A stretch of DNA of 64,000 nt. It comes from a virus. Lineage: Duplodnaviria; Caudoviricetes. The DNA lies in IMG/VR virus record IMGVR_UViG_3300032092_000009, positions 46,869 through 110,868 of that record; one strand, written 5' to 3'. Every line of letters starts with the position of its first letter. The stretch's first letter is position 1. This document shows, one piece after another, positions 3,001 through 53,778 of the stretch. The notes below the pieces were generated by a model, which had not been told where the DNA came from, made no database searches, and saw only the letters and a list, made by a program, of their open reading frames with translations. Both the position numbers and the translations under genes were made by a program.

Positions 3001-3173
3001 GAACAGCTTCTGATTCAGGAAATAGATTAGAGGTAAATGGAACAGTTAATGCAACTGGATATAAACTTAATGGAGTAACAGGTTATACAGGAATGGTTAC
3101 TATACAACAAGCACCTCCGATGCCTCCTATAACTTTTGATATTCAGAATGGTATAATCATGAGCGTCACCTAA
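3..3173 (+). CDS. Tail fibre / receptor-binding protein, 5'-truncated
   Basis: Frame is open from base 3 (YGNFNGTSVV...), so the start lies upstream. G/S/T/N-rich; repeated W-x-x-W knob-like modules (GTWQSWRTILDSGN, GTWNSWLTIIHSGN, GTWGNWLTVLHSSN); ERMRI-x-x-GNVGI repeats. Confidence 0.85.
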   Translation, partial: YGNFNGTSVVNSIRFGTSTNNSTFSGDGAWGIKLYNDNGYIQFGPANTSHAHIYTDRANFYFNKDILINGNSVITTSTIGSQTAGSVTGLTLTSSANNLNPDNVTQNQIGYNTSVSLFGQTDGGLYSSAYSSSWIHQIYGDFRSGQIAVRGKNNGTWQSWRTILDSGNYTSYSPSLTGSGASGTWGISITGNSAYATNSTRLYASDSPYTYGGAAPYYMYMNYDGGSYWELKVSPATPGAVRVAYSNNSGAVGNIDVSRIVYGDGARGRSTSKIGGNANTSDSSNSSGFYFGNAVAGMPSTDWWNWLTVAGNSWSGGDGYAYQMAGSFWGDDFRLRRMTSGTWNSWLTIIHSGNIGSQSVNYATTAGALSSMNISQFSNNSGYLTGITSGQVTGALGYTPYNSSNPNGYITSSGSISGNAATATTANALTSMNISQFTNNSGYLTSLPSHNHDDRYYTESEIDSQISGRLYQASVNTFDFNAFNGTGLYRGSTGSWSNRPPSGHNGGAVLQIDTHPGNYHSQLYFDTGAERLYFRNANAGTWGNWLTVLHSSNFNLYSPSLTGSNASGTWNINVTGSAGSVAWTNVSSRPTALSQFTNDLGNLSSTGGTITGDLNLQYSYPRINFYDTDNDSDYSLINNNGNFSLYDINNNVHRFVVLAGGNVGINTTSPANLLTVNGSTRIVTHAQQGLFGYDDPTGGSFIWSITRYTDGDGNDLNINALAGFAVKTGASSLTNSGHQFYINSSGNVGIGTRLPVGQLNVFGGTGNNAAILTLQSQSGGNGNTGIYFRPYQNETFANSAEAQAAILAQDASYSAHIKFLTKVPGSGTNSLTERMRLTSTGNLLIGTTTDNGFKLTVSGTANITNNVKVGSNTFVVDTVNNRVGIGGSATPSYTLEVLGKGFFNEQVIIANGEGLSLLNNNVQIKPPVINSLGFYTGTSGANERMRITPSGNVGINTTSPTTLLNIKGTSTTSALASFKVENFSGDPGIIVNDAGNLLVGTASDSGNRLEVNGTVNATGYKLNGVTGYTGMVTIQQAPPMPPITFDIQNGIIMSVT

Positions 3174-3181
3174 GCTACTAC

Positions 3182-3211
3182 TTGACAAAATAACTAATAA
3201 CATTATATTTG
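3182..3211 (+). promoter_or_regulatory. Bacteroidota sigmaA-type promoter (TTGAC...TATATTTG)
   Basis: TTG at 3182, TATATTTG at 3204-3211, matching the -33/-7 consensus; precedes the 3248 ORF. Confidence 0.75.
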
Positions 3212-3247
3212 TAATGTATACAAAACTAAAATTATAATTTTACAACA

Positions 3248-3751
3248 ATGGCACTTAAAATCACAAAAAGCATTGGTACCGATAAAGGTATTACCAATGA
3301 GGCATACATCCGTATTGCCGACTACCAAATTTCTAAAACTGGTAACGCTAACTTCCGTATCCAGATTTACTTGAACGAAGCAGACGCTACTCCTAACGTT
3401 TCTATGGGTCCTTCAGGTGTTGAGCAAGCACGTAACCAACAAATTGGTGAGTACTTGTCTGTATCCTTGACTAAGCAAGTAGAAGAAGTTAAGACTCGTA
3501 CTATGATGCGTCCAGTTGAAGTAGATGTAGTTAAGACTCGCACTATCACCAACGAAGAGGGTGAAGAAGTAACCGAAGAATACACTGTAAAAGAATACGT
3601 GACTGAAGAAGTTACTGAAGAGTACACTGTTACAAACACAGTTCCTGATCTATCTTCCGCAGAAGGTGTTGACATTTTTGCATTTGGCTATAGCCACTTG
3701 AAAGCCAAACTTGTCAGTTTGTTTACTGCTGGTAAGGTAGAAGACTGTTAA
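3248..3751 (+). CDS. Tail-fibre-associated protein (possible assembly chaperone)
   Basis: 167 aa directly after the fibre gene; acidic EEYTV repeats. Confidence 0.5.
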   Translation: MALKITKSIGTDKGITNEAYIRIADYQISKTGNANFRIQIYLNEADATPNVSMGPSGVEQARNQQIGEYLSVSLTKQVEEVKTRTMMRPVEVDVVKTRTITNEEGEEVTEEYTVKEYVTEEVTEEYTVTNTVPDLSSAEGVDIFAFGYSHLKAKLVSLFTAGKVEDC

Positions 3752-3752
3752 T

Positions 3753-3784
3753 TTGGCAGGATTTATAAAAAAGCATTATATTTG
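3753..3784 (+). promoter_or_regulatory. Bacteroidota-type promoter
   Basis: TTG at 3753, TATATTTG at 3777-3784. Confidence 0.65.
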
Positions 3785-3809
3785 CATAAACCAACTAAAC
3801 ATATAAATC

Positions 3810-4109
3810 ATGGCTACTAAATTAACTGAACAAGAAATCGAAGCAATCAAAGGCTTCCAGCAAAAGACTCAAAACGTAATTATGGATTTGGGTAAGATCG
3901 AACTTCAAATGAATGACTTGCTTTCTGTAAAAGAGAAGGTAAAAGAAGCAATGGCAGAAGTAGTAAAAGAACAGAATGAGTTCTTCCAGACTATCGAAGC
4001 TAGCTACGGTAAAGGTCAAATCAATTTGGATTCATTTGAATTTATTCCTGCTGAAGCACCTGTTGATGAAACTCCTGTAGTTCCTTTTACTCAGGCAGAA
4101 GTATTGTAA
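3810..4109 (+). CDS. Hypothetical coiled-coil protein
   Basis: 99-aa ORF with A-rich leader, helical with a YGKGQINLDS end; flanked by a promoter and a terminator. Confidence 0.7.
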   Translation: MATKLTEQEIEAIKGFQQKTQNVIMDLGKIELQMNDLLSVKEKVKEAMAEVVKEQNEFFQTIEASYGKGQINLDSFEFIPAEAPVDETPVVPFTQAEVL

Positions 4110-4129
4110 TTTAACTTTATTTCATAAAG

Positions 4130-4156
4130 ACCCTCAGAGAAATCTGGGGGTTTTTT
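4130..4156 (+). terminator. Rho-independent terminator
   Basis: CCCTCAGA-GAAA-TCTGGGGG stem with GNRA loop, followed by T6. Confidence 0.85.
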
Positions 4157-4173
4157 GTTTTATAGCCAACTAG

Positions 4174-4203
4174 TTGACTTATTTTTTTAAAGTTTTATCT
4201 TTG
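4174..4203 (+). promoter_or_regulatory. Bacteroidota-type promoter for the 4.2-11.9 kb operon
   Basis: TTGAC at 4174, TATCTTTG at 4196-4203. Confidence 0.7.
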
Positions 4204-4257
4204 CCCATAACCAACCTTTTCTCACTTAAGTACCGTTTATGAAAGTCCGAAGTTGCT

Positions 4258-4374
4258 TTGAACATCCTTTCAGATATCACTGTGCTAGTGAGTTTAACTG
4301 TTTTTCTCACTGTCCTGCTTTCTAAGTGGGCCATAGAAGACATTATTAAATTTTTAAGAAATAAAAAAAGGTAA
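4258..4374 (+). CDS. Putative small single-TM peptide (38 aa, TTG start)
   Basis: Manual translation MNILSDITVLVSLTVFLTVLLSKWAIEDIIKFLRNKKR; stop lies 4 nt before the next ATG. Confidence 0.35.
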   Translation: MNILSDITVLVSLTVFLTVLLSKWAIEDIIKFLRNKKR

Positions 4375-4378
4375 CTAT

Positions 4379-4627
4379 ATGAAACTATTAAACTTTATTG
4401 GCGGACTCTTCAAAGATGAGAAGGGTGTTGTCTCCATGAAACGCTTGTGCGGATTAGTATGCACAGCTACACTATGCGCTACATTGTACGCTAACTCTTT
4501 TACTGAAGCTCACTTTGCTCCTTCTGTTCCTTTGGTGGATGCGGTTGCTTTGTTGGCTTTTGGTTGTCTAGGTTTGACTTCTGTTGAGAAAATCATGAAG
4601 AAGCCAGAAGCACCTAGCGAAGACTAA
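4379..4627 (+). CDS. Holin-like small membrane protein
   Basis: 82 aa, two hydrophobic segments, S-x-K-R motif before TM1, charged C-terminus, next to a peptidoglycan-enzyme gene. Confidence 0.55.
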   Translation: MKLLNFIGGLFKDEKGVVSMKRLCGLVCTATLCATLYANSFTEAHFAPSVPLVDAVALLAFGCLGLTSVEKIMKKPEAPSED

Positions 4628-4657
4628 TTTACTATAAACTATAAACTATAAACAACT

Positions 4658-5245
4658 ATGAGCTACACAAGAGAACAAATCGAAGCGGCTATGAAAGCCA
4701 AAGGTTATAAGTACTTTGAGAATGGAGATTTTAACGTAAACATTATTGGTGTACGTAACTCTTCTACTGGTACTAAAGTAACTAACGTATTTGACGATCA
4801 CTTAACTCTTTCTTACAAAGAAGGTGGTGAGTGGAAATTTAAAATCTGGCCTGCTACTACAGATCCAGGAACTAAGGGTGTTAAAGAATTCCATAACGCT
4901 GCAGGTGTTGCACGTTTGGTACCTGGTCAATACTCAGGTTCACACCATGTAGGATTGCACCAAGGTAAGTACGAAGCCCTTAAGCAAAAGGCTAACGTTA
5001 AAGTTTACCGTGATGCTAACAAAGACATGAACTATGACGAGTCCAAGATACAAGAAGGCATCTTCGGTATTAATATTCATAAAGCTGGTGCAGACTCTAC
5101 CTACGTTGAAAACTGGAGCGAAGGTTGCCAAGTGTTCAAGAAGTCTGCTGACTTTGATGCATTCATGGTTATCTGTAAGAAGGCTGCGGCATTGGGTGGT
5201 AACTCTTTCACTTATACTCTTATTGAATCTAAAGATATCAAGTAA
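4658..5245 (+). CDS. YkuD/L,D-transpeptidase-like peptidoglycan enzyme (endolysin candidate)
   Basis: GINIH-x11-WSEGCQV resembles the YkuD His...S-x-G-C catalytic motif; no signal peptide. Confidence 0.6.
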   Translation: MSYTREQIEAAMKAKGYKYFENGDFNVNIIGVRNSSTGTKVTNVFDDHLTLSYKEGGEWKFKIWPATTDPGTKGVKEFHNAAGVARLVPGQYSGSHHVGLHQGKYEALKQKANVKVYRDANKDMNYDESKIQEGIFGINIHKAGADSTYVENWSEGCQVFKKSADFDAFMVICKKAAALGGNSFTYTLIESKDIK

Positions 5246-5716
5246 ATGAAAGGACTTCTAGTAAGTCTTTTCCTAATTCTTTCTATCCCCTGTTCTTCTC
5301 AAATCAATGTGATGAAGGCAGGGGATGGTTGGGATTTAAAGGTAGACTCGGCCTTAGCATTAATTGCTCAAACTGATGTCAACGCTTATACTAGAGTAAT
5401 AGATGTCTGCCAAGTAATAGACTTCTGGATTAGCCCCTATTCCTCTAATACAATCTCCCAAGATGGTGGAACTATATTTATCGCTACAGGAGACATAAAA
5501 ACGAATTCACTCAATAACCTAGCTTGTGTTATTGTACATGAAAGTCTTCACTTATACTACTTGTTACATCCAGTAGAACAGTCACAGGACGAAGAAGAAC
5601 TTAAGTGTTATATCTACGAGTTAGACTTTATAAAAAAACTACCAACCCCAGAGCCTTGGTTACAGGCAAATGCAATTGAACAATTACATAAATTAACTAA
5701 AACAAAAACAAAATGA
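5246..5716 (+). CDS. Secreted zincin-like metallopeptidase
   Basis: Signal peptide ending CSS-Q; VHESLH (HExxH) plus downstream EEE. Confidence 0.65.
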   Translation: MKGLLVSLFLILSIPCSSQINVMKAGDGWDLKVDSALALIAQTDVNAYTRVIDVCQVIDFWISPYSSNTISQDGGTIFIATGDIKTNSLNNLACVIVHESLHLYYLLHPVEQSQDEEELKCYIYELDFIKKLPTPEPWLQANAIEQLHKLTKTKTK

Positions 5717-7611
5717 ATAAACTATTTAAAGTAATCATCGGGGTGTTGACATTGTTGGTTGGCAATGTATCAGCACAAAGTTCTGCTACCTCTCCAGGTA
5801 CAGGTCATTGGGTTGTAATCGACTCAGGTTATCAAGTAGCTACAAACACTGTAGGACAGACTGTAGCTCCTCTACACTTCTACAATACCTCTACTTCTGA
5901 AAAGATCACAGGTATGCAGTTCCGTGTATTCTACGATAAGACAGCTTTCACAGCAGTTGTTCCTTCTCTTAAGATTTCTTCTACTGATCAATACTTGCAG
6001 TATGTAGATAGTAACACACAAGGTTTCTTAACTGTTACATTGGCTTACACTGGATCTAGCTCAACATTTAACTACTCTAATGGAGCTACATTTGATCTTA
6101 CCTTCACACACGCAAGCGCAGCTGTATGGAACACATTGGATTCTATTAAGACTCTTAAGGTATCAGGTGTTAAATCATTCGCTAACAAAGCCGCTACTAA
6201 CTGGGGTAACGATACTACTTTAGTAGTTTACTCTTATGGTGGTCGCTTCAACCAGAAAGTATTAAGATTTGCTGCTAAGTTTAAAAACGTAACAGGTTCT
6301 GACGCTAAGAACTTGTGGGTGTCTTTGGAAAAGAAAGCTCCTTCAGGATCTTGGACTCAAGTAGAAGCTAAAGCAACTAACTCTAGTGGTGTTGTTGTAT
6401 TCCGTAAATTCTTGGATACTACTTACTGGGATGTACGTATGGTTGTTAAGGGAGATACTATGACCCCTGGTAACGTATTCTCTACTGCAGATGCACAGAA
6501 AATTAACCAGTCTATTCTAGGTCAATATGTTGCTTCAGGATTTGACTACTACACTATGGACGTAAACGGAACTGATGGAACTATTTCTATTGCTGATGTT
6601 TACTCTGTATACGGACGTTTGGCAGGTAGATTCTCTGCATGGCCTAATTCTAAGAAGGATGTAATGTTCTTTACAGTTGCTGAGTACAACTCAATTAATG
6701 GATCTGCTACTAACTTAACTTCTACTTACTCTACTATTAATAACTTTAACTACACAATTGACGGTAGAGATTCTATCACTTACTACGTAGCTGTTAAAGG
6801 TGATGCTAACTCTACAGGATTTAAGATGGCTCGTTTAACACCTATTAAGATTGTTAACCCAGCTAATGCTAAGCGTTACATCATTGACGAGACTGTAGAA
6901 TACGACTTCCCTGCAGAAACTATTGAGATCAACATGCCTAAAGTAACTGTAGACGAAGGTAACTTGGTTAACGTACCAGTTAAAGTACTGACTAACGGAA
7001 AGAACTTAGGTGCACTACAATTAGACTTGCGTTATGACACTGCTTACTTAGAGTTTAAGAAAGTAGAAAACACTGAGAAGATGATGAAGTGGACTTCTTA
7101 CTTGAACCCTTCTAATGGAATCATTTCTTGGGGAGCTGCTGACTTGACTAACGAGAACATGCTTAATGACGGAGAGCAAGTATTCACTCTTCAATTTATC
7201 GCTAAGAAGCCACAAGACTCTTGGGCTACTGCAGCTTTGTGGACAGGTGCTAAATACGTAGGAGACAAAAACTCTAAAGACATGAACATTACCCCTGCTA
7301 TGGGAGTAATTGAAGTACGTAGAATTAACAAGGGAGTTGTTTCACTTAATGACTTGAACTCTATTATTACTTTTCCTAACCCTACAGAAGGTCCAGTACA
7401 AATACAATTCAAGATCAAAGAAGACAGCGAAGTAGACGTAGCTATCTCTGATGAGGTGGGAAGACGTGTACAAACGATTTTAAGAGAAAGAATGCCTGCA
7501 GGTAAGTACAAGTATAATACAAACCTAGATCGTCTCCCTAATGGCTTCTATGTACTTTCTGTAACAACTCAAAAAGAAATCTTACACTCCAAAATAATCG
7601 TACAAAAATGA
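5713..7611 (+). CDS. Secreted cohesin / dockerin-like / cohesin protein with T9SS type-A C-terminal sorting domain
   Basis: Signal peptide VSA-Q; cohesin-like ITGMQFRVFYD and VNVPVKV..LGALQLDLRYD..LEF; Ca-loop DVNGTDGTISIAD; C-terminal FPNP...DEVGRRV...LPNGFYVL...KIIVQK. Confidence 0.8.
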   Translation: MNKLFKVIIGVLTLLVGNVSAQSSATSPGTGHWVVIDSGYQVATNTVGQTVAPLHFYNTSTSEKITGMQFRVFYDKTAFTAVVPSLKISSTDQYLQYVDSNTQGFLTVTLAYTGSSSTFNYSNGATFDLTFTHASAAVWNTLDSIKTLKVSGVKSFANKAATNWGNDTTLVVYSYGGRFNQKVLRFAAKFKNVTGSDAKNLWVSLEKKAPSGSWTQVEAKATNSSGVVVFRKFLDTTYWDVRMVVKGDTMTPGNVFSTADAQKINQSILGQYVASGFDYYTMDVNGTDGTISIADVYSVYGRLAGRFSAWPNSKKDVMFFTVAEYNSINGSATNLTSTYSTINNFNYTIDGRDSITYYVAVKGDANSTGFKMARLTPIKIVNPANAKRYIIDETVEYDFPAETIEINMPKVTVDEGNLVNVPVKVLTNGKNLGALQLDLRYDTAYLEFKKVENTEKMMKWTSYLNPSNGIISWGAADLTNENMLNDGEQVFTLQFIAKKPQDSWATAALWTGAKYVGDKNSKDMNITPAMGVIEVRRINKGVVSLNDLNSIITFPNPTEGPVQIQFKIKEDSEVDVAISDEVGRRVQTILRERMPAGKYKYNTNLDRLPNGFYVLSVTTQKEILHSKIIVQK

Positions 7612-7955
7612 ACATTAAAAAAGCACTTGGTTTTAGCCAAGCAGAACCAGTAGTAGTAGATCCTAAGAATAGGTTCTATTATATGCTACAACAAATGCAA
7701 GCCAATCGTTGGAAGATCACTGCTATCGTATTAGGTTTGTTCTTCTTTATTATCCTTGGTATTAACTCAGCTGTATTCTTCGGAGTAGAGATTGCGGAGA
7801 ACTGGAAAGAAATGTTGCTTATTCTTTTTGGAGCATTCGTAGGTAATTTGAACAAAGTAGTAGACTACTGGTTTAATTCTGAAGATCGAGATAAGATGCT
7901 AATACAGAAGGTGGATGAGGAAGATGGTGAATCATTGTCAAATAATAATCCATAA
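7608..7955 (+). CDS. Two-TM membrane protein
   Basis: Hydrophobic ITAIVLGLFFFIILGI and MLLILFGAFVG, then VVDYWFNS; ATGA overlap with the previous gene. Confidence 0.65.
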   Translation: MNIKKALGFSQAEPVVVDPKNRFYYMLQQMQANRWKITAIVLGLFFFIILGINSAVFFGVEIAENWKEMLLILFGAFVGNLNKVVDYWFNSEDRDKMLIQKVDEEDGESLSNNNP

Positions 7956-7959
7956 TAAT

Positions 7960-8283
7960 ATGTCAGAAGAACAAGAAGAAAGCGTAATGTCAGCTACTAA
8001 GAAAGCTATCATTGGCGCAGTCACCACTGCTGTAACTGCAGGAGGTGCATGGTTTGCCACTCACTTTGGTGGCGGTGAAGAACCTAAAGAAGAAGCTAAA
8101 ACAGAACAAGCACCCGCTGCTGCTCCTGTGATTAACTTGAATCTAGAGAACAACAACACTAACCAGCAGAAACAATCTTCAGGTGGAACTACTACTATCA
8201 TCAAAGAAAGAACAGTAGAAAAACCTGCAGCTCAATCTGCTCCTGCAACCAAACCACAAGCTGATGAGGAAGATCCTTGGTAA
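7960..8283 (+). CDS. Small membrane-anchored low-complexity protein
   Basis: ATG at 7960, just after the previous stop; KKAIIGAVTTAVTAGGAWF anchor, then P/A/N/Q-rich. Confidence 0.6.
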   Translation: MSEEQEESVMSATKKAIIGAVTTAVTAGGAWFATHFGGGEEPKEEAKTEQAPAAAPVINLNLENNNTNQQKQSSGGTTTIIKERTVEKPAAQSAPATKPQADEEDPW

Positions 8284-8971
8284 ATGGTTTAACAAGTTCA
8301 TGACTCTTGTAGTCTTGACCTTAGCAGGTTGTGGTTCTATGAAGACTACTACCGAAGAAGATAAAGTGGAGGTTAAAGACATCTCCACTGTATCTAATTA
8401 TAGTGATTCTATTAAAAAAACAGTACAAGTGGTAAGCGTAGATATGACCAAGGTACTTGCTCTTTATCCTGCTCTTCAGGAAAAGAACGTAGGTCTTGGA
8501 TTTGCAGAATCTGTTTTGGATTATTTGGATGAAACAAACAGATTTATATTTACGGAAGAAAAATCAGAGATCAAAGAAAGAATGGTCACTCAATTCAAAG
8601 CATCAAAGAAAGGCGTATTCGATGAGCCTATTGATGGCAAAGGTAAGATTAAGCCTGCTCACTACTTTGTGTATGTTACTGTGGCTGATTTTGCTGTTGA
8701 TGAAGACGAGCAAGTTGATGGCCTTAAGTCAAAAGTTGTTGTCACTACCTTCATTCGTTTACAAGTTCGCTTTGTGGACGCTAAAACAGGTCAGATCTAT
8801 ATTGGATCTGGCGAAGGAGAGTCGACTAAGACTGGTGAATCATTCTTAAAATCTTTAGATGATATGAAGTTCTCTCAAAGCACAGTAGGTAAAGCTACTC
8901 GTAAATCTTTGGAGACAGCTTGTACTAATGTGATTCAAAATCTCATTAAGTCAGGTGTATTTAAAAACTAA
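8264..8971 (+). CDS. CsgG/HfaB-family-like lipoprotein
   Basis: Lipobox LAGC; LDETNRFIFTEE and LQVRFVDAKTGQI..GSGEG segments typical of the CsgG/HfaB fold. Confidence 0.65.
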   Translation: MRKILGKWFNKFMTLVVLTLAGCGSMKTTTEEDKVEVKDISTVSNYSDSIKKTVQVVSVDMTKVLALYPALQEKNVGLGFAESVLDYLDETNRFIFTEEKSEIKERMVTQFKASKKGVFDEPIDGKGKIKPAHYFVYVTVADFAVDEDEQVDGLKSKVVVTTFIRLQVRFVDAKTGQIYIGSGEGESTKTGESFLKSLDDMKFSQSTVGKATRKSLETACTNVIQNLIKSGVFKN

Positions 8972-10430
8972 AATACTAATACTATTTATGATAGCTCTGT
9001 CTCTTCGGGGGCAGAGCTTTATTTATTCGTATACAGATCCGTGTACACAGGAGTTAAAGTTTATTAACGCAGACATGTCTAGTCCTATAGTGATTGCTTA
9101 CTACGGACAGGTTAAAACTTTCTCCTACACAGAGTTACAAGATGGTACGTTTGATAATTGGATAAATAGTGTATATTTGAAGTATCAAAGTACATCACCC
9201 TGTCAAGGAGTTGGAGTAACAACTACTACAACTACCACAACAAATACTACCCTAAACATTGTAAGCAATGTTATGAACCTAGGGGCTATTTCAAATGTTG
9301 GTAGTGTAAACGTAGACGTAGGCTCAAGTACCTCTTCAGGAACAAACATAGGAACAACAAAAACCAATAATAACAATGACAATCGAACTAGTTCTCGGAA
9401 TCGTACTAGCAGTAGCTCTAGTCGTTCTAATTCTTCTGGCAGCTCGTCAGGAGAAAATGGAAAATCAAATGATGGAGGAAACTCATCAGAAAATCAAAGT
9501 GGGTCTTCATCCAACTCCAACTCCAGTGGAGAAGGCAGCGGAGAAGGTAATGGAGGAAGCAGTAGCTCCAGCTCCAGTTCCAGTAGTAGTGGAGGAAACT
9601 CCAGTGGTAGTGGAACTAGTGGAAGTAGTAGTGGAAGCTCCCAAGGTGGAGGCGGAAGTGGTGGTAAAACCGAAGAAAAAACGGAAGTACAAACCGAGGA
9701 ACCCACAGAACAAAAAGTAGAAGAAACTAAAACTGAGACTCAAAAATCTCAGTCTACTGGTACTGCAAAAGCTGCAGGAAAAGCTAAAGCCGAAGTTGCT
9801 AAGCCTGCAATCTTAGTAACTGGTGATTTAGTTGGTATTCAGACTAAGTCTGATGGAGCACAAGATGCAAGAGGTACTGCCTCTTTTACTAGAGTAAAGG
9901 GAGACGGTACTTCTTCTCTTGGGTTTTCAGCTGACTACATGGTTAACGCTAGAATAGGAAATATCTCTTGCGTACGTTCCTGGATAGGAGCAAACAAAAA
10001 AGGACACAAACATATCAGTGTTGTATCTGATGGACTTAGCATAATGCCTAAGTCAATGTCAAACACTCTTCTATTTGTAAGAGTTAATTCAGTTAAAAAC
10101 TTTACAGCGCTCTACGGAGCAGCGGGAACCTACGGTAAACTATTTGGAGAAGAAATGATTTCTACCATTGCCATAGGAGGTTTTATGTACAAAGGTAAAC
10201 TTACTAAGAGTATAGACGCTACAGTTATTATGGCTGGTATCTATTCTCCTTATTCTAAGTATTACACAGAGTCTATATTTGAAGCTAAGCCTATTGTTAT
10301 TCCTTTCTTCAACTTTACATATAGAATGACCAAGACTTTTGGTTTAGGTATTACTGGAGGAGGAACATACGTAGCAGGACAGGATATATTGAACTTTCAA
10401 TTATTAATGGGAGCTAAGTTATTAATATGA
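8955..10430 (+). CDS. Secreted protein with Ser/Gly/Asn linker and putative C-terminal outer-membrane beta-barrel
   Basis: GTG start, signal peptide LRG-Q; N-domain with 2 Cys; low-complexity middle; about 200 C-terminal aa with alternating hydrophobic strands. Confidence 0.6.
   Translation: MYLKTKILILFMIALSLRGQSFIYSYTDPCTQELKFINADMSSPIVIAYYGQVKTFSYTELQDGTFDNWINSVYLKYQSTSPCQGVGVTTTTTTTTNTTLNIVSNVMNLGAISNVGSVNVDVGSSTSSGTNIGTTKTNNNNDNRTSSRNRTSSSSSRSNSSGSSSGENGKSNDGGNSSENQSGSSSNSNSSGEGSGEGNGGSSSSSSSSSSSGGNSSGSGTSGSSSGSSQGGGGSGGKTEEKTEVQTEEPTEQKVEETKTETQKSQSTGTAKAAGKAKAEVAKPAILVTGDLVGIQTKSDGAQDARGTASFTRVKGDGTSSLGFSADYMVNARIGNISCVRSWIGANKKGHKHISVVSDGLSIMPKSMSNTLLFVRVNSVKNFTALYGAAGTYGKLFGEEMISTIAIGGFMYKGKLTKSIDATVIMAGIYSPYSKYYTESIFEAKPIVIPFFNFTYRMTKTFGLGITGGGTYVAGQDILNFQLLMGAKLLI
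9376..9720 (+). CDS. Overprinted membrane protein in the +1 frame
   Basis: N-terminal TM (LVLGIVLAVALVVLILLAA), E/V/P-rich linker, basic tail KPKKKRKYKPR; A-rich AACCAA leader. Confidence 0.55.
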   Translation: MTIELVLGIVLAVALVVLILLAARQEKMENQMMEETHQKIKVGLHPTPTPVEKAAEKVMEEAVAPAPVPVVVEETPVVVELVEVVVEAPKVEAEVVVKPKKKRKYKPRNPQNKK

Positions 10431-11410
10431 GGTGGTTAGTTATTCTATTCTTTATTGTAAGCCCTCTAAGTGCACAATTTACTTATTCTGGATACTTGTA
10501 TAATGCAAATGGATCTGGGGCCAACAACGTAGCTATAAAACTGTATAGAAGAACTAACTCAACTATTACAGGCTTTACTAATCAGCAGAACTACAACGGG
10601 CACTCTTATTACCGTTCTACAGGAACTGCATTTTGGACTACAGCCAAGACTAACTGCTCTAATATGGGAGGGCACTTAGTAACTATTACAACTTCAGGAG
10701 AGCAAAGTTTTCTATATAATCTCTGGCCTTCTGGATGGATAGGACTAACAGATGAAGTAACAGAAGGTACTTGGAGATGGGTTACAGGGGAAAGTTATTC
10801 TTATTCTAACTGGAACTCTGGAGAACCTAATAATGCAGGTAACGAAGATTATGTTCAATTTGTATCTAATGGTAGGTGGAATGACTTACCTAATAACTAC
10901 GCACTTCCTTATGTACTAGAGTTTGAGTATTTAGTAACTACTTCTTCTTGGACACTCTACAAGACTATATATACTAACTCTTCGGGTTACTATTCTATTT
11001 CTGAGACTTACGATCCTTCTAAGGAATACTACATTGAGATAGATGCTCCTACCAGAATTCAATCTTATACAACTTCAGACATTCAAGGAGTATCTAATAT
11101 TATTCTCGGAAGGAGTGTAAGGAATGGTTTGTCTTTTCATATGTTTGATGTTAATGAAGACGGAGTAATTTCTATAGCAGATAAGTATTATGTAGCTGCG
11201 AGGAAAGCTGGTTTATTCTCTAGATGGAGAACAGCTCCTGATGTAAGGATCTTTACTACTGCTCAATACAATTCAATTAAAGCAGCAACAACAAACGTAA
11301 GAGCAACCTATCCTGGAGTTACTACTCATACTACAACTACCTTAACCTCAGGGGGAAGTTTAAACTTATATATAATAGCTCCTGGCTATGCTGGAGCAGT
11401 AACCTACTAA
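10427..11410 (+). CDS. Secreted C-type lectin with dockerin-like module
   Basis: Signal peptide LSA-Q; CTLD motifs GHSYY, GGHLVTI, WIGLTD, EG-x-W-x-W, EPN, WND; Ca-loop DVNEDGVISIAD. Confidence 0.85.
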   Translation: MRWLVILFFIVSPLSAQFTYSGYLYNANGSGANNVAIKLYRRTNSTITGFTNQQNYNGHSYYRSTGTAFWTTAKTNCSNMGGHLVTITTSGEQSFLYNLWPSGWIGLTDEVTEGTWRWVTGESYSYSNWNSGEPNNAGNEDYVQFVSNGRWNDLPNNYALPYVLEFEYLVTTSSWTLYKTIYTNSSGYYSISETYDPSKEYYIEIDAPTRIQSYTTSDIQGVSNIILGRSVRNGLSFHMFDVNEDGVISIADKYYVAARKAGLFSRWRTAPDVRIFTTAQYNSIKAATTNVRATYPGVTTHTTTTLTSGGSLNLYIIAPGYAGAVTY

Positions 11411-11412
11411 CT

Positions 11413-11859
11413 ATGAAAAAACTATTTATACTTTGCTTTCTAGTCACTATGATGACTTCTCTGAGTGCTCAATGCTATAAAGTTGACACTGTAACATCAA
11501 TTGCTTCTGTAACAGAAATAGGAGGAAGACCTATAATCTTTGGAGCACAAACAACTTTAGAAGAGATTGCAGCCTCAAAGTACCAACTATGTAATGAGGG
11601 CAGTCCTATTTCAGGAACAATCAAATCCATTGCTATGCCTGAAGAACTCTTAAATATCGTAGGGTTACAGTTTCTTAAGAGAGACTATATTGTAATCACT
11701 GAGATAAATCTAAATGGAGTAACTGTTCTTGGAGAGGCTAAAAAGACTGTCTATGTTAATGCTATGTTTGTTTCTGTAGAAGGTATTCCTCATAACAGAA
11801 AAGCTTATTCTAAGGCATTGGAGAAGTCTTTCAAGAATGGATTTGAGAATTTGAAATAG
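11413..11859 (+). CDS. Secreted hypothetical protein
   Basis: Signal peptide LSA-Q; two Cys in the mature part; last gene of the operon. Confidence 0.7.
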   Translation: MKKLFILCFLVTMMTSLSAQCYKVDTVTSIASVTEIGGRPIIFGAQTTLEEIAASKYQLCNEGSPISGTIKSIAMPEELLNIVGLQFLKRDYIVITEINLNGVTVLGEAKKTVYVNAMFVSVEGIPHNRKAYSKALEKSFKNGFENLK

Positions 11860-11929
11860 TTTTTGTTCCTTCTCATTCTGAGAAGTAGTCTATTTTGACT
11901 TTCTATTCTAACTTATATTGCAGCAGTTT

Positions 11930-12175
11930 TTAACCAAATAGCTCTCGGAGCTAAGTCTCTGTTCTGTCCACTTATTGCCTACGGTCTATTACTTGTAGGT
12001 CAGAGCACTGCAAACTTCATTAGAACATTTTGACACTATCGGAGAAACCTCTTTTCACCTCTGAGGGCTACTCATACTATCCAACTTCTAGCAGATTACT
12101 TTTTAATCCTCGTCTGCGAACATTAAGAAATGGTGTCGGGGGGTCAAAGATAAAGCGACTTACGTGTAAGTAGAT
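11930..12175. ncRNA. Candidate structured intergenic RNA
   Basis: Within the ~350-nt gap with no listed ORF; several stems (gctc/gagc, cctac/gtagg, ctctg/cagag, gacacta/tggtgtc, gcaga/tctgc, gatta/taatc, acttac/gtaagt). Confidence 0.3.
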
Positions 12176-12213
12176 GTCCGTGTGGAAAATTTGTGAAATA
12201 AAAGATAGCTAGA

Positions 12214-12486
12214 TTAGAGTCCAGCTACATTCTGAGCATGCATATAGTCTGTCTGCTGCATAGGTTGATCATCTCCTAGAATAGATTCTAGAGCATAGTC
12301 AATATAATCGAAGAGCATTTCTTCTGTGTACTTCTTTCTATAGGTAAAATCTTTGAATCCTTGATAAAGGGCATCCTTGAATCCACCTATGTCTCCTGCT
12401 ATCTTGACCTCTTCATCCTGTAAGGCTAGAAGGAAGAACTCGAATACTTCTTCTGAGGTCGGCTTTTTAACTTTTTCCATCGACAT
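12214..12486 (-). CDS. Hypothetical acidic protein
   Basis: Likely ATG at 12486 (MSMEKVKK...), downstream of a minus-strand promoter. Confidence 0.65.
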   Translation of the reverse strand: MSMEKVKKPTSEEVFEFFLLALQDEEVKIAGDIGGFKDALYQGFKDFTYRKKYTEEMLFDYIDYALESILGDDQPMQQTDYMHAQNVAGL

Positions 12487-12504
12487 AGCAGTAATTGTTT
12501 GATA

Positions 12505-12534
12505 CAAATATAGGTTTAAATAAAGTTTTGTCTA
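12505..12534 (-). promoter_or_regulatory. Divergent Bacteroidota-type promoter
   Basis: Reverse complement reads TAGAC...TATATTTG with the same spacing as the other promoters. Confidence 0.6.
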
Positions 12535-12643
12535 TAGTGTTTATCTAATTCCCTGAGACATCTAAAATAATTATCTAGGTTACAAATTGAGTTAACACGT
12601 GTAACATTTGATATTAATTACTGGTTTAGACTTAACATTTAAC

Positions 12644-12673
12644 TTGACTTTTTTTGTTACAATCGTATATTTG
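12644..12673 (+). promoter_or_regulatory. Bacteroidota-type promoter of the packaging operon
   Basis: TTGAC at 12644, TATATTTG at 12666-12673. Confidence 0.75.
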
Positions 12674-12697
12674 TTTAGCAAAAAACAAACCAAACCA

Positions 12698-13054
12698 ATG
12701 AAAGTAGCACGTAGATATGAAGAAGGAGTTAAGTTACATCAAGCATATATTGATGTATTGCTCAGACTTGCAGGGTATAGATTATCAGATTTATACACTA
12801 GTATATTAGCCCATAGTTCCTACTACGGCACTTTAGACAAAGAAGTAAAAGAAAGAATCGCTGGTGAGTTTAACACATCAATTCAGGTAATCTCTAATGG
12901 AATTACTAGATTAAGAAAGATGGGCATCTTAGAAAAAAACATAGTCAACCCAAGACTGTGTCCTACTAGCAAGCAAGGTGTTACACTCACATTGGTTCTT
13001 TCAACAGGCAATGGAGTAACTGAGAATAAGGCAGAGAGCGCAATAGCAGTATGA
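12698..13054 (+). CDS. Winged HTH DNA-binding protein
   Basis: ATG at 12698 after an AACCAAACCA leader; KERIAGEFNTSIQVISNGITRLRKMGIL fits an HTH pattern. Confidence 0.65.
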   Translation: MKVARRYEEGVKLHQAYIDVLLRLAGYRLSDLYTSILAHSSYYGTLDKEVKERIAGEFNTSIQVISNGITRLRKMGILEKNIVNPRLCPTSKQGVTLTLVLSTGNGVTENKAESAIAV

Positions 13055-14200: not shown

Positions 14201-14507
14201 GAAATTATCATACATATCAGCAGAGTTAGAGTGGGCAGAACAACGCCTAACTGAGTGGAGGGCATACATTGATAACAATCCTATCAACGGACTCAAAGAC
14301 AGGATTGAATGGAAGCCAACAGCTAAAGGAGGAACTATGCCTATGGTTATTGCTAGTCAAGAATCTCAAATCAAGTCTTTAAGAGATACTATGAAAGAGT
14401 ATCTAGCTCTTTTAGAAGTAGTAGATAGATTGAGAGAGAAAGAAGAGCAAAAAGCAGAAGCTAGAGGTTCTCAAGAGATCAATGGTAAGATGAAACAGTT
14501 TAGTTAA
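14190..14507 (+). CDS. Putative terminase small subunit
   Basis: 105-aa helical protein immediately upstream of TerL (positional inference). Confidence 0.45.
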   Translation: MATKKLSYISAELEWAEQRLTEWRAYIDNNPINGLKDRIEWKPTAKGGTMPMVIASQESQIKSLRDTMKEYLALLEVVDRLREKEEQKAEARGSQEINGKMKQFS

Positions 14508-14512
14508 TAGTT

Positions 14513-16522
14513 ATGTATCCAAATCTAGAAAGTCCTGAATTCCTAATCAACGTACACAATCTCCCTGACGCAGACTCAGAGGAGTATACTGCGTTCTGGG
14601 AAAACGAGGACAAAAAGATTACAGAGGGTGTAACTATTAACGGATTCTATTTTTCTCCTTTTATTTACTGGCACTTAAACTACTGGTCCATTTATGTGGA
14701 CACTATGATAGGTAAGCGTCAAGTTCGTAAATTAGATAAACCTCAGTTGTGGGACACCTACTTAGCTGTAGATGAAACTATCAACAAAGCTGAGAATCAC
14801 GAAGACGGAAAGAAAGGAGTTGTTATGGTAGGATCAAGACGTATCTCTAAATCAGTTCTTACTTCTTCCTATATGGCTCACAAGGCTGTAACACAGAAGG
14901 GATCTGACAACTTGATATCTGCGCTTAATCAACCTGACTTAAAAGTAATCACAGACTATGTAGACTTAGGTCTTAGAAACCTTCCTGACTATTTTAGATT
15001 TCCTCGTATTGAGGATGACTGGAAGAAGCAGGTAACTTTAGGTTTTAAAGATAAAAAGACTAACGCTCGTAATGAGTGGTCTAAGTTTCATGTACGTAAC
15101 TTCGATGAAGGTAACAATACGGAAGCAGCGGCAGGTCTTACTCTATCTTCGTTTCTTTTGGAAGAAGGAGGAAAAGGAAAGATCCTTAGTTGTTTAGCGG
15201 CAACTACTCCGTGTTTTGATAGTCCTTATGGATGGCGTTGCTCTCCTTTTGTAATTGGAACTTCTGGAGACATGAGTAAAGCAGCTGACCTAGAAGAACT
15301 TTTCAATAACCCAGAAGCTTATAACTTTCTTCCTGTAGAATCTAACGAATCAGGAAAGTCTTACGGATTGTTTATTCCAGGAACTCGTTCTTTGAAAGTA
15401 CCAAAAGAAGAAAAGCCTTTAGGACTTTACTTAGGTAAGGAAGGTCAGTCCGAGTTAGATCTAATTAAGATCTGGGTAGCAGACGAAGAAAAAGGTAAAG
15501 ACCAGATTCTTAAGTCTAGAGAGCAGATTAAAAAGTCTAGTGGATTAGAGACTTACTTGAAAGAAGTAATGTATTACCCACTAACTCATGAAGAGTGTTT
15601 CCTAGAACTGTCTCAGAATATCTTTCCAGTAGATTTGCTTCAGGAACAATTACAGAAACTAACAGCTCAAGAGATTGTAGCTGACAACGTAGAACTGTAT
15701 ACAGGATCTGAAGGAACTATTAGACACAAGTTTACAGATAAGAAAGCCGTTACAATGTTCCCAGTGAAGCCAACAGATGACATTGAGGGTTGCGTACAGA
15801 TTTGGGAATATCCTCTCTCAGATGCTCCCTATGGGCTTTATACAGCAGGAACGGATCCATACAAACAATCACAGGCTCACTACTCAACTTCTTTAGGGTC
15901 TACTTACATCTACAAAAGGGTACATAGTCTTAACGGAGAAGGGTGGCAGAATATGGTTGTTGCTTGTTACACAGGTCGTCCTAAGAAGATTGAGACTTGG
16001 TACGAGACTACTAAGATGCTTCTTAAGTATTACAATGCTAAGACTCTTTGTGAAAACATGGACTACGGTTTTATCCAACACTGTGTAGATAAGAACGAAT
16101 CTCCCAGAGTACTTGAGAAGACACCTAGATTCTTAAATGATATTCATCCTAACTCTACAGTTAATCGTGACTATGGTATTCACATGACTAAAGATATTAA
16201 AAACTATTTGATGTCCCTCATCATTGAATACATTACCGAAGTAGTAGAGATAGAGAGAGACGCAGATGGAAACATAGTAAAAGAACGCTTAGGAGTAACC
16301 AGAATATTAGACCCTGTACTGATTAAGGAATTAATTAAGTTTACACCTAAGTTAAACGTTGACCGAGTTATATCTTTTGGCTTGACATTAGCAATGGCTA
16401 AATCATTGAACACTCAGGTAATCATATCTGATGCAAGTCAAGACACTAGAATGCAAGCATACTTTAGAGAGAAGAAAGGGAACTCTCTATTCCGTACTAC
16501 CTCATCTCCCTTCCGTTATTAA
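14513..16522 (+). CDS. terL: Terminase large subunit
   Basis: GSRRISKS Walker-A-like, LLEEGG Walker-B-like, GTSGD motif C, nuclease YTAGTDPY and NVDRV, as in crAss TerL. Confidence 0.92.
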   Translation: MYPNLESPEFLINVHNLPDADSEEYTAFWENEDKKITEGVTINGFYFSPFIYWHLNYWSIYVDTMIGKRQVRKLDKPQLWDTYLAVDETINKAENHEDGKKGVVMVGSRRISKSVLTSSYMAHKAVTQKGSDNLISALNQPDLKVITDYVDLGLRNLPDYFRFPRIEDDWKKQVTLGFKDKKTNARNEWSKFHVRNFDEGNNTEAAAGLTLSSFLLEEGGKGKILSCLAATTPCFDSPYGWRCSPFVIGTSGDMSKAADLEELFNNPEAYNFLPVESNESGKSYGLFIPGTRSLKVPKEEKPLGLYLGKEGQSELDLIKIWVADEEKGKDQILKSREQIKKSSGLETYLKEVMYYPLTHEECFLELSQNIFPVDLLQEQLQKLTAQEIVADNVELYTGSEGTIRHKFTDKKAVTMFPVKPTDDIEGCVQIWEYPLSDAPYGLYTAGTDPYKQSQAHYSTSLGSTYIYKRVHSLNGEGWQNMVVACYTGRPKKIETWYETTKMLLKYYNAKTLCENMDYGFIQHCVDKNESPRVLEKTPRFLNDIHPNSTVNRDYGIHMTKDIKNYLMSLIIEYITEVVEIERDADGNIVKERLGVTRILDPVLIKELIKFTPKLNVDRVISFGLTLAMAKSLNTQVIISDASQDTRMQAYFREKKGNSLFRTTSSPFRY

Positions 16523-46086: not shown

Positions 46087-46129
46087 TTAAAAAAGAGTAA
46101 AAGTACTAAACTAAAGTATATTTGTAAAG

Positions 46130-53224: not shown

Positions 53225-53228
53225 AGAT

Positions 53229-53747
53229 ATGGCAAGTTGCGATTTAAAAACAACAAACAGAGAGTACATGATTGCAAAGGGAGCTATAGTACAAGGTTCC
53301 CTTAAGATACCGAATGAACGTCTATTCGATCTACATAATGCAGAGATCAGAGATTCTGCTAACCAACGTTATAATTTAAATAACGAGGAACTTCCTTTTA
53401 CTAAAACTGAAAGACGAATTACTAGAAACGATTATCTTAGAAGAGGGTCTGACTACTTTGTAGAGTGGGGATTCAATGATAAGTTCTTTGATAATATTAG
53501 ACCTATAGTAGAAATGTACAAGTCTTTTGATGAGGATATCTACGATGAGACCCCTACTACTATCCCTACTTACAGTCAAATGCAGATTTCCTTTGAAGAA
53601 AGCATAGACGATAATATCATAGTAAAGGAAAGTCCTATTAGGACAACCTTTCCTTACGAAGCCGAAGACTATCTTGCAGATGTTAAGGCAGAAACTAAAG
53701 CCAACTTAACTAGACTTCAGTTTAAAGAAGAGGCTTGTAATATTTAA
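53229..53747 (+). CDS. Small protein between RNAP and zincin cargo (possible linker)
   Basis: 172 aa with Cys only at position 4 and third from the end. Confidence 0.65.
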   Translation: MASCDLKTTNREYMIAKGAIVQGSLKIPNERLFDLHNAEIRDSANQRYNLNNEELPFTKTERRITRNDYLRRGSDYFVEWGFNDKFFDNIRPIVEMYKSFDEDIYDETPTTIPTYSQMQISFEESIDDNIIVKESPIRTTFPYEAEDYLADVKAETKANLTRLQFKEEACNI

Positions 53748-53778
53748 TTATATTTGTATAATAACTTAAGATAAAATA

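Follow-up and report, generated by a model that had tools for sequence, protein, structure and literature searches.

Why would a bacteriophage encode a set of exported proteins that recall the parts of a cellulosome? The question is raised by the IMG/VR virus record IMGVR_UViG_3300032092_000009, a genome of 110,868 bases with an estimated completeness of 94%. Its final 64 kb (positions 46,869 to 110,868; referred to below as the window) harbour a block of eight consecutive genes on the + strand (Table 1). An original prediction, made from the letters without database searches, had described this block as a cohesin scaffold tagged for the type IX secretion system (T9SS), a dockerin-bearing lectin, a CsgG-like lipoprotein, a β-barrel and a zincin, and had proposed that the proteins remodel the surface of the infected cell. 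The observations made there were confirmed by our analysis, and the interpretation is partly supported; the purposes it suggested (gluing of cells, masking of receptors, deterrence of grazers) are conjectural. We found that the eight genes form a conserved cassette that moves between phage backbones, and that the glycan-binding head of its lectin is exchanged while the remainder of the set stays the same. The reading we favour, to which we assign a probability somewhat below one half (about 0.45), is that the cassette provides a phage-encoded, T9SS-routed scaffold that would display variable glycan binders on infected cells.

Scaffold, lectin slot and export signals

All eight cassette proteins carry an export or membrane signal, which can be read from their translations as a signal peptide, a lipobox or a membrane helix. 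As had been predicted, five of them (156, 632, 491, 327 and 148 amino acids (aa)) have a Sec signal peptide that ends just before a Gln, and one has a lipobox. The Gln at +1 is invariant in alignments of the 632-, 327- and 156-aa families, and fits the Q-rule of Bacteroidetes signal peptides (PMC5837995). Together with the C-terminal domain (CTD) recognized by T9SS and the labels of metagenome-assembled genomes (MAGs), these signals point to a host among the Bacteroidota. Since each of the eight proteins is marked for export or for a membrane, they are not built into virions in the cytoplasm, in agreement with the earlier view that they are not virion proteins.

Concerning the 632-aa scaffold, both the pair of cohesins and the T9SS CTD were recovered by profiles above their cut-offs. 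The whole protein scored 59.2 bits against Cohesin PF00963 (cut-off 24.1, E value 6.6e-16) over two stretches. The N-terminal cohesin alone scored 24.8 bits, just above the cut-off, the C-terminal cohesin was matched at residues 405-534, and the scaffolds of relatives reached 30.7-49.6 bits. The two cohesins displayed no similarity to each other in BLASTP (E value 2.7). At the C-terminus, Por_Secre_tail (PF18962) gave 38.2 bits against a cut-off of 27 (1.7e-9), and the type A profile TIGR04183 gave 34.4 bits against a cut-off of 23 (1.6e-8), the match lying at residues 554-631 of 632. In distant scaffolds the CTD was likewise found above or near the cut-off.

The 327-aa lectin-slot protein was clearly recognized by Lectin_C PF00059 (62.1 bits against a cut-off of 22.6, 9.9e-17). 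Its EPN and WND motifs, from which sugar binding is predicted, are those of the C-type lectin that had been described, and a T9SS CTD was absent from this protein with Pfam and TIGRFAM profiles, as was any secretion tag beyond Sec. Both the scaffold and the lectin-slot protein contain a β-sandwich followed by a Ca-loop module, and the two copies of this unit are 34% identical. The dockerin-like Ca loops of the original prediction hold as motifs: DVNEDGVISIAD and DVNGTDGTISIAD are genuine, with one canonical DxNxDGxIxxxD loop in each docking module. They do not hold as a family assignment. Dockerin_1 (PF00404) remained under its cut-off of 22.9 bits in the window (13.5 bits) and in the related loci L006 (17.0) and L007 (14.3), EF-hand matches were also below threshold, the helix that precedes the Ca loop (TSDIQGVSNIILG / TADAQKINQSILG) has no loop, and the duplicated Ca-binding loop-helix segments of dockerins are thus absent. 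A dockerin chain in the PDB (4uyp_B) was aligned weakly with scaffold residues 244-314 (E value 0.12).

We then compared the lectin-slot proteins of the relatives. They have in common the first 40-odd residues, comprising the signal peptide and the first strands of the sandwich, and the last ~150 residues, comprising the rest of the sandwich and the docking module. The head in between differs. C-type lectin heads are found in slot proteins of 302-329 aa, PA14 heads in those of 372-386 aa and GEVED heads in those of 355-359 aa, whereas proteins of 551-555 and 994 aa combine Laminin_G_3 with a C-type lectin. Heads without a family match occur in proteins of 397-400, 409 and 760-765 aa. The head types that could be named in this slot are C-type lectin, PA14, GEVED and ConA-like. 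When the whole genome of 110,868 bases was searched for reverse transcriptase (PF00078), 0 matches were obtained, and the variation is therefore one of head swapping and not of retroelement mutagenesis.

By sequence, the docking modules divide into two classes. Their distances track those of cohesin 1 (Spearman 0.445) over those of the 148-aa protein (0.252) and of the barrel (0.131), in a set of 55 sequences and with values that are not corrected for phylogeny; we take this as a weak hint of co-variation. A complex prediction of cohesin 1, cohesin 2, the mature lectin protein and Ca returned scores of 0.01 and 0.00, where the mark to be reached is 0.32, which gives no answer and is evidence neither way.

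For the 235-aa lipoprotein, an AlphaFold2 model was obtained from a 10-row alignment (pLDDT 70.4). CsgG was the best match in Foldseek (4.3e-6, TM 0.40-0.47), and structural comparison with VIA gave Z 12.2 for CsgG, with 149-168 residues aligned at a root-mean-square deviation of 3.4-4.3, followed by PelC (Z 9.8) and LptE (Z ~9). The top match in BFVD was a phage protein named CsgG (1.1e-6), and two metagenome records had also been named CsgG by their source. The sequence identity to CsgG is ~13-17%. We could not identify any Pfam family for this protein at E values up to 0.1, including CsgG PF03783, nor a PDB sequence match at E values up to 10 with the profile of its family (w235). The CsgG-like lipoprotein of the original prediction thus stands in its fold and lipobox, and not in a sequence profile. 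Among the cassette proteins no curli partner family was found with Pfam and NCBIfam profiles. The 148-aa protein is probably a shortened paralogue of the 235-aa protein, judging from sequence comparison: the w235 profile matches several members of the 148-aa family over ~100 residues, and direct alignment of the two profiles with hhalign was weak (probability 4%, E value 0.01, 41 columns). Atlas leads for the 148-aa protein were LptE/Lipoprotein_16, and a PDB sequence search returned only chance-level rows.

As a separate observation, an Ignavibacteriales MAG contig of 232 kb (L089) contains, at 7992-9295, two tandem CsgG-fold genes with 36% and 28% identity, which lie amid cellular genes. A gene for an 825-aa protein and a CHASE2-adenylate cyclase gene come next, and cohesin, barrel or lectin genes are absent there. 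The 235-aa protein may have cellular relatives in these two genes.

The model of the 491-aa protein, built from 38 rows, has a pLDDT of 66.6 overall and of 85-93 in the barrel. Its N-terminal domain has a conserved Cys pair, and the 165 disordered residues of the linker include 52 Ser, 30 Gly, 17 Asn and 17 Thr. The C-terminal part is modelled as a 12-strand outer-membrane barrel, as had been expected, of no assignable family. In VIA it matched CymA (Z 19.2), EspP (18.4), NalP (14.5) and FapF (12.8), and OmpG and FadL were also matched. Pfam gave nothing relevant for 38 members of the barrel family, and neither Pfam nor NCBIfam gave an autotransporter match. The family comprises 194 representative clusters among 1.84 billion proteins.

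The three remaining proteins are small. The 156-aa protein is a candidate for the zincin that had been claimed: its HExxH motif (HESxH) is invariant in 16/16 relatives, as is Glu117/118, and no family was matched above cut-off; atlas leads pointed to DUF6647/eCIS_core at 0.93. Two membrane proteins had also been claimed. A strong helix is present in the 115-aa protein, and the helix of the other, a 122-aa open reading frame (ORF), is weak and lies under the hydropathy threshold used. This ORF probably starts at 7960, giving 107 aa, because its relatives start there. In the two divergent loci L086 (6204-6575) and L087 (6343-6699), a lipoprotein of 118-123 aa (lipobox ISC/AGC) is encoded between the scaffold and bitopic genes, and is not homologous to the 115-aa protein. 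With PHROGs, no family was found for the eight proteins except phrog_38564 (function unassigned, 0.0015) for the 115-aa protein, and PADLOC, applied to 10 proteins, indicated no defence family.

Conservation, mobility and related systems

The synteny search that had been suggested was carried out in IMG/VR, where at least 553 stretches encode relatives of w235. The six core genes (scaffold, bitopic, CsgG-fold, barrel, lectin slot and small paralogue) follow one order throughout 122 loci. When each gene was counted in those of the 122 loci whose flanks reach far enough, with three loci lacking a full-length CsgG-fold match left out, the scaffold was present in 97/97, the bitopic protein in 114/114, the barrel in 108/109, the lectin slot in 103/103 and the small paralogue in 97/97. 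The 115-aa gene was found in 79/97 loci, and the HExxH gene (63/74) is accessory. The order is also kept in 21/21 distant loci whose w235 is 45-56% identical. Pairwise ratios of nonsynonymous to synonymous substitution (dN/dS) against relatives, with pairs of dS outside 0.05-2 or coverage <80% dropped, had medians of 0.066-0.264 for the eight genes, all of which are under purifying selection. The block is thus neither unconserved nor host-derived debris.

The backbones that carry the cassette differ. In two complete contigs (166 and 176 kb) nothing matched the major head protein of the window, and another cassette-bearing contig encodes a helicase 62% identical to that of Flavobacterium phage immuto. 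In loci L006 and L014 the head protein is 23-26% identical to that of the window, yet the cassette is 84-98% identical. Overall, the cassette is 67-98% identical between backbones whose major head proteins are 23-26% identical or not detectable. At least three phage backbones that are unrelated to each other carry it, that of immuto among them, and it is horizontally mobile. On the other hand, only six loci, all in MAGs and one of them the Ignavibacteriales locus L089 described above, were found among 185,579 cellular species genomes, and in the family of one Flavobacterium MAG the cassette was present in 2/401 genomes. The cassette is phage-specific and nearly absent from cellular genomes.

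The cultured relative, Flavobacterium phage vB_FspM_immuto (MW353175), is a myophage of 160 kb that was found via blastn. Its genes 13-19 are the same cassette, with identities of 50% for the lectin, 43% for the CsgG-fold protein, 28% for the barrel and 27% for the small paralogue, and with cohesin and bitopic proteins present. It differs from the window in that the scaffold is split into two genes, one for cohesin 1 with the module and the other for cohesin 2 with the CTD, and in that the lectin gene comes first. The 115-aa and HExxH genes are absent, the signal peptide of the CsgG-fold protein is a plain one, without lipobox, and the endolysin gene lies ~28 kb away. In the immuto cluster only two genes carry an annotation, in each case a domain name; the cluster as a whole has been given no function, and a literature search found no paper that discusses it. 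Directly upstream, immuto gene 12 (L001 8240-8818), annotated as DNA/RNA endonuclease G, encodes a signal peptide ending before Gln, and may be a secreted nuclease that accompanies the cassette. The presence of the cassette in immuto, its movement between backbones, the swapping of its lectin head and its usual place beside lysis genes all go beyond what the original prediction had noted.

The stretch 4300-11900 was sought in public runs and is present in those of 12 studies, most of which bear a freshwater label. Beside freshwater and lake runs, three with the label fungus metagenome contain 86-91% of its sampled words. One metatranscriptomic library yielded short contigs at 6841-7009, 7919-8234, 9365-9515 and 11312-11544 that differ from the window at 0-3 positions, and also contigs outside the cassette, at 3710-4051 and 14417-14739; two other RNA runs gave no such contigs.

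We compared the cassette with known systems. It resembles the cellulosome of Clostridia in its multi-cohesin scaffold and in a separate protein that joins a working head to a Ca-loop docking module, and the split anchor and adaptor of immuto recall the anchoring and adaptor scaffoldins of cellulosomes. In contrast to the cellulosome, its heads are lectins and not enzymes, each module has one canonical Ca loop and scores below Dockerin_1, the anchor is a T9SS CTD and not an SLH domain or sortase signal, and the whole is phage-encoded. As a T9SS type A cargo, with a CTD above the cut-offs of both Pfam and TIGRFAM and a surface glycan binder as the likely output, it is comparable to the lectin adhesin RemA of Flavobacterium johnsoniae, which is itself T9SS type A cargo; the RemA-CTD complex 8gl6 turned up among the structures searched. 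Unlike in RemA, tag and lectin reside on separate polypeptides, and the tag is phage-encoded.

The CsgG/CsgF genes of pelagimyophages and of the methylophage Melnitz (PMC9004378, PMC7029224) likewise provide a CsgG-fold outer-membrane lipoprotein near lysis genes, without curli subunits, and sibling capture or lysis timing has been proposed for them (PMC9004378). The cassette protein differs in its missing Pfam CsgG match and low identity, in its constant pairing with a 12-strand barrel and with cohesin and lectin genes, and in its Bacteroidota hosts.

The gene for the CsgG-fold protein always directly precedes and overlaps the barrel gene, an arrangement that, together with its structural matches to PelC and LptE, recalls the PelC-PelB and LptE-LptD pairs. 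There is no sequence relation to these, and the barrels of LptD and PelB have 26 or 16 strands instead of 12. The predicted C-terminal 12-strand barrel also resembles that of type Va autotransporters in structural alignments, which place a helix where EspP and NalP have their lumen helix, and the order of N-domain, linker and barrel is that of FapF. The helix of the cassette protein, however, lies ~170 disordered residues from the barrel. A full-text search of the literature available found no description of a phage cassette of cohesin, T9SS tag and lectin. Each domain is known, and so are CsgG-like genes of phages; what was not found there is the combination of a phage-borne, T9SS-tagged cohesin scaffold, a single-loop module common to it and to a head-swapping lectin, and a constant set of CsgG-fold and barrel proteins.

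A possible surface display and its alternatives

In the mechanism that we propose, the scaffold would pass the inner membrane via Sec and then be taken to the cell surface by the T9SS of the host, directed by its type A CTD. The lectin-slot protein, whose glycan-binding head is inserted in the β-sandwich ahead of the module that is also found on the scaffold, would bind a cohesin through this module, probably already in the periplasm. As it has no secretion tag of its own, it would exit together with the scaffold. The bitopic and two-helix inner-membrane proteins, the CsgG-fold lipoprotein, the small paralogue and the barrel protein may together span the envelope as a helper complex by which the display is anchored or assembled. 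The net effect would be that infected cells and their debris bear phage-chosen lectins late in infection, and that these lectins attach to glycans on nearby host cells, on particles or on the infected cell itself. Display appears to be the most economical mechanism, and its modular design of adaptor and anchor would permit the scaffold split seen in immuto. A bolder version, which we consider doubtful, is a plug-and-play display, traded between unrelated phage lineages, that hijacks T9SS. It would consist of a two-cohesin scaffold, of swappable lectin heads exported by way of a new single-loop docking module, and of a phage-supplied complex across the envelope, with a CsgG-fold ring and a barrel on a long disordered tether, to hold the display or export it. 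The dying cell would thereby become a sticky trap that gathers fresh hosts where the burst is about to occur ("sibling capture").

Several points weigh against a display. The binding of cohesin to docking module is presumed from the sequences, and the docking module, which misses the cut-off of Dockerin_1 with its one canonical Ca loop instead of two, can only be called dockerin-like. In four pairs of loci with near-identical cohesins (distance <0.08) the docking modules are 64-68% different and belong to different classes, and there is therefore no strict co-evolution of cohesin and module. The roles of five of the eight proteins are guesses. The 235-aa protein lacks both a Pfam match to CsgG and, in the immuto homologue, the lipobox, with PelC and LptE close behind CsgG in structure, and the two AlphaFold2 models are of only moderate confidence. 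The host and its T9SS are inferred. Expression is known from the short contigs of the one RNA library, which may reflect DNA carry-over. Finally, an endolysin gene lies within two genes of the cassette in most backbones examined, which suits a role in lysis equally well.

Such a role, the main rival of the display and one that we judge unlikely, would make the membrane proteins, the CsgG-fold lipoprotein, its paralogue and the barrel an envelope complex that times or executes disruption of the outer membrane, in the manner of a spanin or a gated pore, with cohesins and lectin as accessories that, for example, tether wall or debris. Holin-like and endolysin genes precede the cassette in the window and in L006-type contigs. 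In the immuto-like contigs L036, L038, L065 and L032 a GH19-type endolysin gene lies within two genes after the cassette, and in L085, L086 and L087 a PG_binding_1+GH19 endolysin gene flanks it, L086 having a holin-like gene inside the cassette as well. The distance of the endolysin gene in immuto, however, indicates that this linkage is frequent and not obligatory. The gene for the 107-aa bitopic protein overlaps that of the lipoprotein by 20 bases, and some spanin gene pairs are known to overlap. On the contrary, the lipoprotein is a folded domain of 210 residues and no short, Pro-rich o-spanin, it is unlipidated in immuto, and the tail of the bitopic protein, rich in Pro, Ala and Gln, has no coiled coil by reading. 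A two-component spanin was accordingly considered for the adjacent, overlapping pair and rejected, the tail not being helical by reading and the 235-aa protein being folded and, in immuto, without lipid. A lysis complex would also leave the two cohesins, the T9SS tag and the swapped glycan-binding head unexplained, although they are equally invariant. Regulation of lysis has been proposed, from synteny, for phage CsgGF pores (PMC9004378), which speaks for this alternative.

The same assembly may instead be aimed at the surface glycans of the infected cell itself, the phage receptor or its surroundings, in order to block superinfection and to spare the loss of progeny on debris, as Llp of phage T5 does for FhuA. 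With the other parts kept constant, the heads change from one glycan-binding fold to another, as tracking of variable host glycans would yield, and in the window the cassette is directly downstream of tail-fibre genes. However, the ligand in this proposal is conjectural, and the neighbouring lysis genes speak for expression late in infection, while functions of exclusion tend to act early. We regard it as rather improbable. Taking into account that EPN-type lectins prefer Man/GlcNAc, we also considered a periplasmic complex in which lectin and scaffold would act on peptidoglycan or envelope precursors, with the CTD a vestige. The lectin-slot protein, confined to a Sec signal, and the neighbouring endolysins would fit. 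The retention of the CTD in distant scaffolds argues against such a complex, as do the PA14, GEVED and ConA-like heads, which are typical of surface adhesins, and we think it quite improbable. The least credible alternative, that the block is a decoration of the virion or a decaying host-derived fragment, could be suggested by its location between tail-fibre and packaging genes. It is contradicted by the signals for export or membrane insertion on each protein, by PHROGs, in which no structural family was matched, by dN/dS values of 0.07-0.26, by an order kept in 122 loci and by near absence from cellular genomes.

Layout of the window and significance

The window is phage DNA, as had been assumed: among its genes are those for the large terminase (phrog_6681, 5.8e-96), the portal (1.4e-103), the major head protein and proteins of the tail fibres. 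In the phage collection the best relative of the terminase (14513-16522) was that of the Leptolyngbya (cyanobacterial) phage Lbo-JY46, at 38.5% identity, and the identity to terminases of crAss-like gut phages and Cellulophaga phages was 28-29%. A tRNA search of the window found none, and Rfam at gathering scores gave 0 matches over its whole length. The eight ORFs span 5246-11859 with the coordinates originally predicted, and the tight packing with overlaps, each of 4 bases, at 5713, 7608 and 10427 was confirmed.

The single promoter that had been placed at 4174 did not withstand scrutiny. Sigma-70-like matches in the scan numbered 25 against 26.4 expected in shuffles, and this site is not above chance. 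TATCTTTG at this site fits TAnnTTTG, which we take to be the Bacteroidota -7 consensus, and the two-box promoter pattern of Bacteroidota type gave six matches in the window, none of them upstream of the cassette. The unit likely starts further upstream of the cassette, with the gene at 4379: the hairpins at 4126-4155 and 11869-11885 probably bracket a unit of ten genes that begins with the holin-like and endolysin-like genes.

Table 1. Features of the cassette and its borders in the window.
Feature	Positions	Strand	Remarks
Terminator-like hairpin	4126..4155	+	13 pairs then T run; closes preceding unit
Candidate promoter	4174..4203	+	Sigma-70-like TTGACT/TATCTT, 9/12; overlaps TATCTTTG
Holin-like protein, 82 aa	4379..4627	+	Two hydrophobic segments; accompanies cassette in many relatives
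Endolysin-like protein, 195 aa	4658..5245	+	phrog_3000 1.4e-38; phrog_33083 endolysin 3.2e-13
Secreted protein, zincin-like, 156 aa	5246..5716	+	HESLH 98-102, Glu117/118, Cys121; accessory
Scaffold, 632 aa	5713..7611	+	Signal peptide; cohesin 1 (23-176); β-sandwich and dockerin-like module (177-371); cohesin 2 (398-546); type A T9SS CTD (554-632)
Ca-loop motif DVNGTDGTISIAD of scaffold internal docking module	6559..6597	+	Motif read in sequence
Two-helix membrane protein, 115 aa	7608..7955	+	One strong hydrophobic helix, one weaker; dN/dS 0.068
Bitopic protein, 107 aa	7960..8283	+	ORF readable from 7915 (122 aa); N-terminal MSEE; Ala/Gly/Thr-rich helix; Pro/Ala-rich tail ending in invariant Trp
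Lipoprotein, CsgG-superfamily fold, 235 aa	8264..8971	+	Lipobox LAGC; predicted structure
Barrel protein, 491 aa	8955..10430	+	Signal peptide; small Cys-pair domain (21-77); predicted helix (84-116); disordered linker (117-284); predicted 12-strand barrel (285-489)
Lectin-slot protein, 327 aa	10427..11410	+	Signal peptide; split β-sandwich with inserted C-type lectin (70-163); docking module with Ca loop (11147-11182)
EPN motif	10823-10831	+	Residues 133-135 of lectin-slot protein
WND motif	10877-10885	+	Residues 151-153 of lectin-slot protein
Secreted protein, 148 aa	11413..11859	+	Signal peptide with Gln+1
Terminator-like hairpin	11869..11885	+	10 bases past last stop codon

Some further features of the window were noted. 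Within the first 60 bases of the 491-aa gene, at 8993-9018, lies a strong terminator-like hairpin of 11 pairs, 6 of them G-C, with a tail rich in T, and terminator-like sites are enriched in 3100-12700 (15 against 5.4 expected, standard deviation 2.4). The region 11860-12607, with ~350 non-coding bases containing small hairpins and a lone minus-strand ORF (12214-12507, 97 aa, no PADLOC match) before + strand genes resume, probably marks the border of a module. A 167-aa ORF (3248-3751) between the genes for tail fibres and lysis has Glu/Val/Thr-rich, VTEEYTV-like repeats and a weak match to phrog_14049 (0.0059). Inside the endolysin-like gene, at 4950-5090, blastn gave short matches (71-76% identity) to Bacteroides phage crAss002 and to the pig-gut phage cr271_1, where the genes are annotated as hypothetical. 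A virion protein of 1687 aa is encoded at 30096-35159 (phrog_37948, 4.9e-117), and three giant + strand ORFs at 41398-59808 (1562, 2364 and 2009 aa) had no PHROG match at 1e-5.

If the proposed display is correct, phages would not only kill Bacteroidota but also re-dress their cell surface with a modular, exchangeable set of glycan binders. To do so they would make use of a host secretion system that has so far been tied only to the cell's own cargo. This would represent a new class of phage accessory function, and would bring assembly of the cohesin-dockerin type to viruses and join it to a T9SS anchor. The proposal is open to direct tests in a pair that is in culture, phage immuto and Flavobacterium sp. 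LMO8. The cassette is abundant, and its function would help to make sense of the puzzling CsgG-like genes found in aquatic phages.

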